Of a DNA stretch of 4,344 nt, positions 1 to 4,344 are shown piece by piece. Below the pieces are notes generated by a model. It searched no databases and had not been told where the DNA came from. It saw only the letters and a program-made list of their open reading frames with translations. Each line of letters begins with the position of its first letter. The first letter of the stretch is position 1. Position numbers and translations under genes: made by a program. The DNA is from a virus (Monodnaviria; Loebvirae; Hofneiviricota; Faserviricetes; Tubulavirales), in IMG/VR virus record IMGVR_UViG_2667527898_000017, one strand, 5' to 3'.

Positions 1-84
1 TGCCATATCTGCTGCCTTCTCATGCTGATTGCAAAGTCTTAATTTTAACTTCCATTTTTCATAGCTGAATCCAAGGGGTCCGTT

Positions 85-104
85 TTGATATTTATTGGTA
101 TCAA
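85..104. promoter_or_regulatory. Palindromic site A, TTGATA-N8-TATCAA, upstream of rep (candidate operator or origin element)
   Basis: Read directly: ttgatatttattggtatcaa at 85..104 has perfect 6-bp inverted arms around an 8-bp AT-rich spacer. It shares the core TGATA-N8-TATCA with site B at 141..160. Function is inferred from position only. Confidence 0.4.
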
Positions 105-140
105 CATTATTGACGTTTGTTAAGTTTGATAATAGCATAA

Positions 141-160
141 CTGATACCGTCAAGTATCAG
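141..160. promoter_or_regulatory. Palindromic site B, CTGATAC-N6-GTATCAG, upstream of rep (candidate operator or origin element)
   Basis: Read directly: ctgataccgtcaagtatcag at 141..160 has perfect 7-bp inverted arms. Same TGATA-N8-TATCA core as site A, centres 56 bp apart, ending 49 bp before the rep ATG. Confidence 0.45.
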
Positions 161-193
161 TGCTGAGCCTTGCGGTTCATCTTGAATGATTGA

Positions 194-2209
<2,016 letters not shown>

Positions 2210-2239: not shown

Positions 2240-2665
2240 ATGAATCAAATTTACGACAGTTTTCCGTTTCCTTCCCCTGAGGGTTTTACCGCAGGTATGA
2301 CAATGGCGGGATATTTTATTCACGCCACTGTCATAAATGATGAGGAGTTAAAACCCACGGGTTCTCATTATAACCCTGAGGCCAAACCCAAATATGCCAT
2401 TGTTATTGCCTATCCGTATGAGGACCGAAAATTAAAAGTCCGCCGTGAGGAGCATGAGCGCTTTTCCTGTACTGAGGAGGATTTTAAATTTTTTAATTCA
2501 TGTCCTGATTTGCAGGGCAAATCTGTTTATCTCACGGTGGATGTTAACTCATGGTCGACAGGCTCAGAACGTCATGGTGTCTGGTATCGTTTTATTTCCG
2601 GCTCCATGAAACGTTTTGACGGTCAGCCGCTGGGTGCACTGCCCGCAGGTAAAGAAAAAGGCTGA
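2240..2665 (+). CDS. Hypothetical protein at the gene V position (candidate ssDNA-binding protein)
   Basis: 141-aa ORF with ATG at 2240 preceded by GAGGA at 2226..2230 (9-nt spacing). It starts 30 nt after the rep stop and ends at TGA 2663..2665, 4 nt before the next gene. The functional call is positional only; I see no diagnostic motif. Confidence 0.5.
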   Translation: MNQIYDSFPFPSPEGFTAGMTMAGYFIHATVINDEELKPTGSHYNPEAKPKYAIVIAYPYEDRKLKVRREEHERFSCTEEDFKFFNSCPDLQGKSVYLTVDVNSWSTGSERHGVWYRFISGSMKRFDGQPLGALPAGKEKG

Positions 2666-2979: not shown

Positions 2980-3240
<261 letters not shown>

Positions 3241-3255
3241 TAGTTATTTAACGAC

Positions 3256-3278
3256 AGCGCCCTCCGGGGCGCTTTTTT
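3256..3278 (+). terminator. Rho-independent terminator between the coat gene and gene III
   Basis: Read directly: AGCGCCC (3256..3262), loop TCCG, GGGCGCT (3267..3273), a perfect 7-bp GC-rich stem followed by a T-run to 3278. It starts 16 nt after the pVIII stop. Confidence 0.7.
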
Positions 3279-3300
3279 AATCATACCAGGAGTGTTTTGT

Positions 3301-4344
3301 TTGATTCACTTTATTATTCCGCTTCTGTTTTTGTTCTTTTCCTCGTTTTCTTTCGCTGAAGAGAAAGAAAATCCGGATGCACTTGTTCAGTGTGCAGGCC
3401 ATTCATCCTGCAGGACAGATTATTCGGACGCGGGGACGTCGATTAAATTAGCCAGGGCGGCCGGTCATCTTTTCTGTGGTTCGGGCAGTTATGACGCATG
3501 TTCCGGAATAATTCATTATTGTGGTGTGCCACTTTCAACGCCTGTTAATGCACCTTCGACTGTCGGGTCTTTTGTCCGTGCCCGGTGGTCAGCATATAAA
3601 GTCTGGGATTCAGACAAGCAAAAGTGGACAGCCTGCACCCTTGCTTTTCAGGGTGGTGAGGGGGATTTGACACCTGAATATAATAAGCCGCCAACTGACG
3701 AGATTTGTCTTTCTCGTCCGGTTCTTGATGGTATGACTTTTTCTGATGTTTATAAAGGTGATGACGGGACCCGTTATGTTAATGTGCAGGGGTGTATTTA
3801 TGAGGCAACCGGTAATCCTCTTATTTGTAATCCCGATGATGATACAGTTTGTACTGCCGACTGGAAACCAGTTGCTGTAGATCCTGCATTCTCCGATGGT
3901 AAGGAGGATGGCGGTAGCTCAGGTGGTGGCAGTTCCGGTGGTGGTAACCCAGGCGGCGGCAGTTCCGGTGGTGGTTCAGGTTCTGGCTCCGGTGGTTCAT
4001 CCGGTAGCGGTGGCTCCGGCTCGGGTTCCGGCGGCTCATCCGGCAGTGGTGGTTCAGGTTCTGGCTCCGGTGGTTCATCCGGTAGCGGTGGCTCCGGCTC
4101 GGGTTCCGGCGGCTCATCCGGCAGTGGTGGTTCAGGTTCTGGCTCCGGTGGTTCATCCGGTAGCGGTGGCTCCGGCTCGGGCTCCGGCGGTTCATCCGGT
4201 AGCGGTAGTTCAGGTTCAGGATCCGGTGGCTCATCAGGCGATGACAATGGCTGGCGTGATGGTAGTTTGGGCTGGTTAACAACAATATGGGTGTCAGTGA
4301 ATGATTTAAATAATGCTTTTTCTGTTTCTCAGGCTGATATGAAT
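3301..4344 (+). CDS. gIII: Minor coat / adsorption protein pIII (5' partial; runs off the window end)
   Basis: The frame opens after TAG 3241..3243 and has no stop through 4344 (I translated it codon by codon). No in-frame ATG near the 5' end; TTG at 3301 follows AGGAG at 3288..3292 by 8 nt. Predicted signal peptide MIHFIIPLLFLFFSSFSFA. An N1-like module (about 3700..3880) has four Cys with Ff-like spacing, followed by a ~110-aa Gly/Ser linker (3907..4239) and the start of a further domain. Confidence 0.85.
   Translation, partial: MIHFIIPLLFLFFSSFSFAEEKENPDALVQCAGHSSCRTDYSDAGTSIKLARAAGHLFCGSGSYDACSGIIHYCGVPLSTPVNAPSTVGSFVRARWSAYKVWDSDKQKWTACTLAFQGGEGDLTPEYNKPPTDEICLSRPVLDGMTFSDVYKGDDGTRYVNVQGCIYEATGNPLICNPDDDTVCTADWKPVAVDPAFSDGKEDGGSSGGGSSGGGNPGGGSSGGGSGSGSGGSSGSGGSGSGSGGSSGSGGSGSGSGGSSGSGGSGSGSGGSSGSGGSGSGSGGSSGSGGSGSGSGGSSGSGSSGSGSGGSSGDDNGWRDGSLGWLTTIWVSVNDLNNAFSVSQADMN
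3973..4206 (+). repeat. 78-bp tandem repeat (three full copies plus partial flanks) encoding the pIII Gly/Ser linker
   Basis: Read directly: copies at 3973..4050 and 4051..4128 are identical; copy 3 (4129..4206) differs at 3 positions. Degenerate partial copies flank it (3961..3972 and 4207..4239). Each unit holds two 39-bp halves that both encode GSGSGSGGSSGSG with different codons. Confidence 0.85.

Follow-up and report, generated by a model that had tools for sequence, protein, structure and literature searches.

Two palindromes upstream of rep in an Escherichia coli filamentous prophage as probable operators of a divergent HTH repressor in an exchangeable immunity module

What reads the two matching palindromes (TGATA-N8-TATCA) that lie directly upstream of the replication gene rep in an Escherichia coli filamentous prophage? 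The window, i.e. the whole stretch of DNA that was analyzed (4,344 bp), is one entire contig of a draft assembly and covers the left half of a filamentous prophage (inovirus) of E. coli. The product of rep is a member of PHROG 91 ('nicking at origin of replication'), and rep opens the operon that we propose to be controlled by the two palindromes, hereafter sites 1 and 2 (Table 1). Backbone relatives that are 95-99% identical from position ~207 on were found in 43 complete E. coli genomes, where Zot-like and secretin genes come next in the array. Megablast against deposited phages gave no match to the whole window, and an exact 34-mer of the window was absent from viral contigs. A look-up of the identical Rep protein led to this contig alone. 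Within 3900-4240, there is a long near-perfect tandem repeat for the Gly/Ser-rich linkers (GGSSGSGGSGSGSG...) of the g3p-like protein; alignments to relatives fragment at this repeat, and the contig ends shortly beyond. Just 3' of the major-coat-like gene (3255-3285), inspection by eye showed a GC-rich hairpin with a run of T behind it (cagcgccctccggggcgctttttt), which resembles an intrinsic terminator or attenuator placed between the coat and g3p genes.

Table 1. Features of the window, with positions counted from its first nucleotide.
Feature	Position	Strand	Remarks
XRE-type HTH gene, first two codons (ATG GCA, Met-Ala)	1..6	-	remainder left of the contig end
Predicted -10 of the repressor gene, TAAAAT	42..47	-	weak -35 TTCAGC at 64-69; 16-nt spacer
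Flanking half-site-like element GGTCC	77-81		4 nt outside site 1; mirror of 164-168
Site 1	86-103		18-bp dyad TGATA-N8-TATCA, TGATATTTATTGGTATCA; between two divergent promoters
Predicted -35 of the rep operon, TTGACG	110-115	+	promoter scan; TTGAC invariant in 13 distinct sequences and in all register-table loci
Third TGATA, without partner	127-131		in the spacer of the rep promoter
Predicted -10 of the rep operon, TAGCAT	133-138	+	promoter scan; 17-nt spacer; predicted start ~145
Site 2	142-159		18-bp dyad TGATA-N8-TATCA, TGATACCGTCAAGTATCA
Flanking half-site-like element TGAGC	164-168		CTTGC (169-173) directly after
rep	209..2209	+	666-aa replication endonuclease, P2 gpA family; Pfam Phage_GPA, E = 4e-48
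Gene for 141-aa protein	2240-2665	+	sole match a PHROG of unknown function; slot of the ssDNA-binding protein in relatives
Two tiny ORFs	between the 141-aa and 80-aa genes	+	
Gene for 80-aa protein	2998-3240	+	major-coat position
Gene for g3p-like protein	after the 80-aa gene	+	Phage_Coat_A domain and Gly/Ser repeats

The initial annotation of this DNA had described palindromes at 85-104 and 141-160 that share half-sites and an 8-bp spacing, with centres 56 bp apart, and had judged their chance recurrence unlikely. Our analysis agreed on each point. The motif matches exactly at both sites, and one additional symmetric base pair extends each of them to the coordinates originally given (TTGATA..TATCAA and CTGATA..TATCAG, respectively); the midpoints fall at 94.5 and 150.5. 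In site 2, the symmetry extends further, giving a perfect inverted repeat with 8-bp arms at 140-147 and 154-161. A search for further copies, as the annotation had proposed, found no third TGATA-N8-TATCA in the 4,344 bp of the window with one mismatch allowed. In shuffled sequences, 0.10 matches are expected, and two or more were obtained in 1 of 200 shuffles. The possibility that the motif is merely common background did not hold either: across 207 kb of DNA, related and flanking, the 13 exact matches and the 26 relaxed matches (TGAYA-N8-TRTCA) are without exception inside the HTH-rep intergenic region, so the motif is not a general feature of this DNA. For comparison, base composition predicts ~4 copies per 4.6-Mb genome. 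In viral contigs, a scan picked up the paired motif at 28 loci, one in the HTH-cassette family described below; the others are AT-rich chance matches or coding tandem repeats. The unpartnered TGATA at 127-131 is kept (as TGATA or TGGTA) solely in the closest subgroup and is missing in loci L005, L011, L015 and others; therefore, it is probably not a core element.

A divergent gene for a small HTH repressor had been suspected to the left of the window, and its beginning was indeed found, at the left end of the window. The minus strand reads ATGGCA at 6..1, and the annotated HTH coding sequences of loci L002 and L003 begin at the equivalent of position 6. Window 1-660 recurs at 98% identity in L064, a 923-bp contig of a second E. 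coli assembly; the reverse complement of L064 runs 263 bp further left into the gene, giving residues 1-89 of the HTH protein (P0007, MAVDKECAERIR...). Relatives that are 90% identical over window 1-213 encode a 162-aa XRE/HTH_3 protein (WP_000257530), and in every full-length locus tabulated an HTH_3 protein is encoded divergently from an inovirus replication gene. No S24 peptidase or autocleavage domain was detected in the HTH protein with Pfam, and a PDB profile search with it returned nothing better than E = 0.4. In the AF2 model (pLDDT 59 overall), the C-terminal half of the repressor is poorly modelled; for this reason, dimerization is assumed from the dyad symmetry of the sites.

Sites 1 and 2 bracket a predicted, conserved sigma-70 promoter of the rep operon, called by a consensus scan that returned one promoter-like site in the region versus 0.8 expected by chance. 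Besides TTGAC in the -35 hexamer, positions T1, A2, A5 and T6 of the -10 hexamer are invariant in the 13 distinct sequences, and its equivalents across loci include TATCAT, TAGTAT and TATATT. A gap of 6 bp separates site 1 from the -35 hexamer downstream of it. Site 2 starts 3 nt past the -10 hexamer and spans ~ -4 to +15, covering the predicted transcription start. Site 2, as a proposed operator, thus overlaps the start of the operon that it would repress, the promoter itself being predicted from consensus and conservation. When loci were anchored on TTGAC, they shared a gap-free register: site 1 (18 bp), 6 nt, -35 TTGAC(G/A/T/C), 17-18 nt, -10 TAnnAT, 2-3 nt, site 2 (18 bp), 4-6 nt, a half-site-like element and an invariant CTTG. 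This register holds in every full-length locus tabulated.

On the repressor side, TAnnAT (TAAAAT, TAAGAT, TAGAAT, TACAAT or TATTAT) is present at the equivalent spot in 16 of 16 divergent loci. From this conserved element we infer a repressor promoter at 42-69; its -10 was not called in the consensus promoter scan. Relative to the predicted rep and repressor promoters, site 1 would be centred at ~ -50 and ~ -60, respectively. Outside site 1, the element at 77-81 reads GGTCA or TGTCA in relatives, (G/T)GTC(A/C) being kept across SVST-type loci, and may be a repressor contact. Its counterpart at 164-168 varies with operator type (TGAGC, AGACC or TGACA versus GGCAC). Together with sites 1 and 2, these elements form an array symmetric about 122.5, in which each flanking 5-4-5 arrangement of half-sites has one half-site in common with a 5-8-5 dyad. 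The CTTG within 169-173 is invariant in 16 of 16 aligned loci, including those with the other operator specificity, and was also seen by eye in a Vibrio relative. CTTGC would lie ~25 nt inside the predicted rep leader; consensus folding of the leader RNA gave no pairs, hence no conserved structure to account for it.

The intergenic region and the HTH gene behave as a module separate from rep. All rep-sharing relatives lose similarity to the window at ~207, at the rep start codon. Conversely, window 1-213 is found at 90% identity in five E. coli genomes, where it lies between a divergent HTH_3 gene and a gene for G2P (Ff gene II type). The cassette, consisting of the HTH gene, the sites and the promoter, was found in ~24 loci, with initiators of three unrelated families as partners: Phage_GPA (the window), G2P/Phage_CRI and Rep_trans. 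Relatives of the HTH protein reach down to 48% identity; the loci sampled came from Erwinia and Kluyvera genome records, viral contigs and raw-read assemblies, and from contigs with a product named Salmonella enterica or Providencia rettgeri by the sources. The sites co-travel with the HTH gene rather than with a Rep family. The same rep, in turn, is found with other upstream modules. In locus L001, a 99%-identical rep is preceded by a different module with a 62-aa divergent ORF and its own TTGCAC-type repeats, and in other rep-sharing relatives by an IS110-family transposase gene or by ~650 bp without annotated gene. These results indicate that repressor and operators are swapped as a unit. 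Because locus L064 reproduces the junction independently, and microhomology amounts to only ~6-8 bp, we reject chimeric assembly as the origin of the mosaic.

Where the cassette joins the GPA-type backbone, at the start codon of rep, there are ~6-8 bp of microhomology (TTTTAyGACyG; window 200-216, L001:6000-6020, L002:9195-9215). The ATG of G2P-type relatives is ATA in the window (202-204), the rep ATG following at 209, and the distance from the Shine-Dalgarno-like GAGAG to the rep ATG is ~13 nt, which is unusually long. The 62-aa ORF of the alternative module (L001:5890-5985) belongs to PHROG 2503 (unknown function) and is accompanied by three repeat copies related to TTGCAnnTTTGCACAATTGCAC, which look like a second, heteroimmune operator set. 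In many E. coli genomes (loci L033:227-1192 and L034:224-1189, for example), the IS110-family ('RNA-guided') transposase gene ends 2 bp before rep; prophages of this type adjoin hcxB, not hipBA, and occur at up to 17 matching places per genome, an arrangement that suggests an alternative strategy of integration and copy number for GPA-type inoviruses. The left prophage junction beside hipA (L002:8013-8045, L001:5312-5345) reads GGTGCGCATAATGT..., a longer odd centre and ..TTATGTTGAAA. Compared by eye with the dif consensus, it is a hybrid, dif-like site, which would fit integration at dif through XerCD; the E. coli dif itself, searched with up to 3 mismatches, was not found in L001 and L002. 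The prophages of these two loci are in tandem, with hipBA as their chromosomal neighbour.

Two distant or degenerate forms of the cassette were also observed. In Erwinia tracheiphila (L004:2830-2930), site 1 and the -35 hexamer are kept and the -10 hexamer and site 2 are deleted, fusing the promoter spacer to a GAGCCTTGCGG element; this locus is probably a decayed prophage. Vibrio phage 10N.239.311.B03_PE002 (PQ189300.1; L065:1315-1480), an inovirus of Vibrio cyclitrophicus, carries a distant relative with a divergent 210-aa HTH protein whose HTH domain is 42% identical. There, the dyads TGTCAC-N7-GTGACA and TGTCT-N9-AGACA flank a TATATT -10 hexamer, followed by TGACACTTG. The same layout in this Vibrio phage indicates that it is older than the Enterobacterales lineage.

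If the HTH protein reads these sites, its recognition helix and the half-sites would be expected to change together, and they do. Within the family, the HTH domain is near-invariant except for the first two residues of the predicted recognition helix, which the AF2 model places at the start of helix 3. Repressors with VS or TS at these residues are found with TGAYA..TRTCA dyads, and those with AR or SR with TG[G/T]CAC-N6-GTG[C/A]CA at the same positions; the flanking half-sites change likewise. Both helix types occur among proteins named Salmonella enterica by the sources, which makes a host factor an unlikely reader. This co-variation reflects few independent events, perhaps one to three clades, so that it is supportive rather than statistical proof.

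We then weighed what else could account for the palindromes. They might be hairpins of single-stranded DNA that serve as a minus-strand origin, an element of the plus-strand origin or a packaging signal, as in the intergenic region of Ff phages. Integrative Xanthomonas inoviruses can have short hairpins, 20-26 nt long, as their packaging signals (bioRxiv 10.1101/2023.12.30.573655), and folding of the single strand, suggested in the initial annotation as a check, showed that site 2 of the window does form a local perfect 8-bp hairpin (-5.6 kcal/mol, z = -6.6). However, this stability is not conserved: hairpin free energies are 0 to -2.0 kcal/mol at site 1 and -0.2 to -5.6 kcal/mol at site 2, the window being the extreme value. 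What is conserved is the sequence of the half-sites. Of the 12 columns that make up the TGA/TCA cores, 11 do not vary among the 13 distinct sequences (hypergeometric P = 1.8e-5), and mean identity is 0.99 in the cores, 0.80 in the spacers and 0.71 in the remaining region, so the symmetric sites stand out from their surroundings. The folded half-site consensus is (A/T)(T/C)TGAYAY. At half-site position 4, T and C replace each other without a matching change in the opposite arm: TGACA..TATCA, with a C/A mismatch, is common, C-G across the arms occurs in no case, and in site 2 the pair at this position is broken in 8 of the 13 sequences. As a measure of pairing and covariation, 498 of 500 shuffles scored at least as high as these 13 sequences. 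Shuffled versions of the 141-nt region fold as well as the region itself (z = -0.95, -1.72), which also has no match in Rfam. In addition, the same sites occur with three unrelated Rep families and bracket promoter hexamers; neither the maintained pairing nor the single cognate initiator family of an Ff-type hairpin is seen. At the level of sequence, the pattern is that of half-sites recognized separately on double-stranded DNA, with no conserved stem. The origin or packaging stem-loop that had been offered as an alternative is accordingly very unlikely, given the absence of compensatory changes, the unconserved stability and the independence of the sites from the Rep family.

A phage protein other than the HTH repressor, such as a Cro-like or antirepressor-type regulator, could bind the sites, or two regulators could share them. 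The first gene after the promoter in Rep_trans-type relatives is a 64-aa ORF, and the 5-4-5 arrangements overlapping the 5-8-5 dyads could mean two binding modes or two proteins. The window, however, has no ORF between the promoter and rep, and the HTH gene is the sole constant companion of the sites, whose half-sites track its recognition helix; we regard another phage protein as improbable. A global regulator of the host (FNR-, CRP-, LexA-, Fur- or IHF-like) is slightly less probable still. The FNR half-site resembles TTGAT..ATCAA and part of the IHF consensus resembles TATCAA, both of which can be found in the palindromes. The full consensus sequences are TTGAT-N4-ATCAA for FNR and TGTGA-N6-TCACA for CRP, whereas site 1 reads TTGAT-N10-ATCAA, a spacing that fits neither. 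By such comparison of spacing and mismatches with consensus sequences, sites for FNR, CRP, Fur, DnaA and IHF were rejected, and LexA was rejected by search: window 1-230 contains no LexA box (CTG-N10-CAG), site 2 being CTG-N14-CAG. LexA had been a candidate because it is reported to act at the equivalent region of CTXphi (work cited in PMC8402870). Moreover, the half-sites differ between phage types whose host the sources name as Salmonella enterica, and they follow the phage repressor helix. Finally, the position directly upstream of rep would suit iterons of Rep, but the sites accompany Phage_GPA, G2P and Rep_trans alike and are lacking in prophages with a 99%-identical rep; chance recurrence is excluded by the expectation given above and the positional conservation across loci. 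Iterons or chance together are the least credible of these explanations.

The sites are, in our judgement, most probably operators of the divergent XRE-type HTH repressor, within a portable immunity module analogous to RstR/ig-2 of CTXphi. The proposal of an operator pair for a dimeric HTH regulator, made in the initial annotation, thus gains support from position, conservation, co-occurrence and co-variation. We infer binding, repression, stoichiometry, the induction signal and the role of site 1 from the comparison of sequences. A repressor dimer would occupy each 18-bp dyad. At site 2, it would block RNA polymerase, because this site covers the transcription start, and rep and the following same-strand genes would be silent in the lysogen. 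Silencing of rep would keep lysogeny and confer superinfection immunity. Site 1 probably serves cooperative binding and/or autoregulation. The spacing of 56 bp corresponds to ~5.3 helical turns, which is out of phase for simple looping. With the half-site-like elements at 77-81 and 164-168, the array is symmetric, which hints at a higher-order complex enclosing the promoter. The cassette would have been recombined onto different inovirus backbones. More tentatively, and with considerable doubt, it may be a Rep-agnostic plug-in lysogeny switch traded among Enterobacterales and Vibrio inoviruses at the rep start codon, in which the helix residues (VS, TS, AR, SR) recode half-site positions 3-4 to yield heteroimmune lineages and six half-sites build a higher-order repressor complex beyond two independent dimers.

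CTXphi is the closest functional analogue. Its repressor gene rstR lies divergently upstream of the replication gene, as does the HTH gene here. Phages that are otherwise similar exchange rstR and ig-2 together, and the match between the two is specific to the allele (PMC11509585). Likewise, the module in this family is swapped at the rep start codon and its operators follow the repressor type. The Rep of the window is distantly similar to RstA of CTXphi (29.5% identity). Homology between RstR and the HTH protein was not detected by tblastn of the phage collection (E <= 1e-3); that search gave 27 records, 22 from Pseudomonas phages and 5 from Vibrio phages, all five listed Vibrio hosts being V. 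cyclitrophicus and none of the records in the host tally being Vibrio cholerae or CTXphi. Unlike CTXphi, the cassette has two clean 18-bp dyads with flanking half-sites, no LexA box and three Rep families as partners.

With the cI/Cro switches of lambdoid phages (lambda, 434, P22), the cassette has in common an XRE/Cro-C1 HTH (Pfam HTH_3) and dyad operators over divergent promoters. In lambdoid and other XRE repressors, the first residues of the recognition helix set specificity, and immunity regions are mosaic; the cassette would share both properties. It differs from the lambdoid switches in lacking an S24 peptidase, in having two dyads 56 bp apart astride the promoter instead of three adjacent sites, and in being carried by a single-stranded DNA filamentous phage. 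The operators of HipB (TATCC-N8-GGATA) are bound by an XRE-HTH dimer at two 5-bp half-sites 8 bp apart. This 5-8-5 geometry equals that of sites 1 and 2, whereas half-site sequence and protein differ; that hipBA adjoins the prophages of loci L001 and L002 is a coincidence. Pf4r and Pf5r of Pseudomonas Pf phages are repressors of temperate filamentous phages that control superinfection as promoter-bound dimers, and these proteins and the C protein of P2 bind non-palindromic direct repeats (PMC8402870). They belong to another protein family, and the sites described here are inverted repeats.

The kind of phage switch described here is ordinary and well known, which makes the advance incremental; this HTH/operator version of it was previously undescribed. 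E. coli and Salmonella commonly carry filamentous prophages, which are little studied, and the cassette offers a testable candidate for the switch that silences them: a repressor family that can be named, a pair of putative operators of defined consensus, and a promoter prediction. The natural specificity series (VS/TS versus AR/SR with matching half-sites) could serve the study or engineering of orthogonal repressor-operator pairs, and it could predict immunity groups of enterobacterial inoviruses, in which the regulatory cassette and the replication module travel separately.
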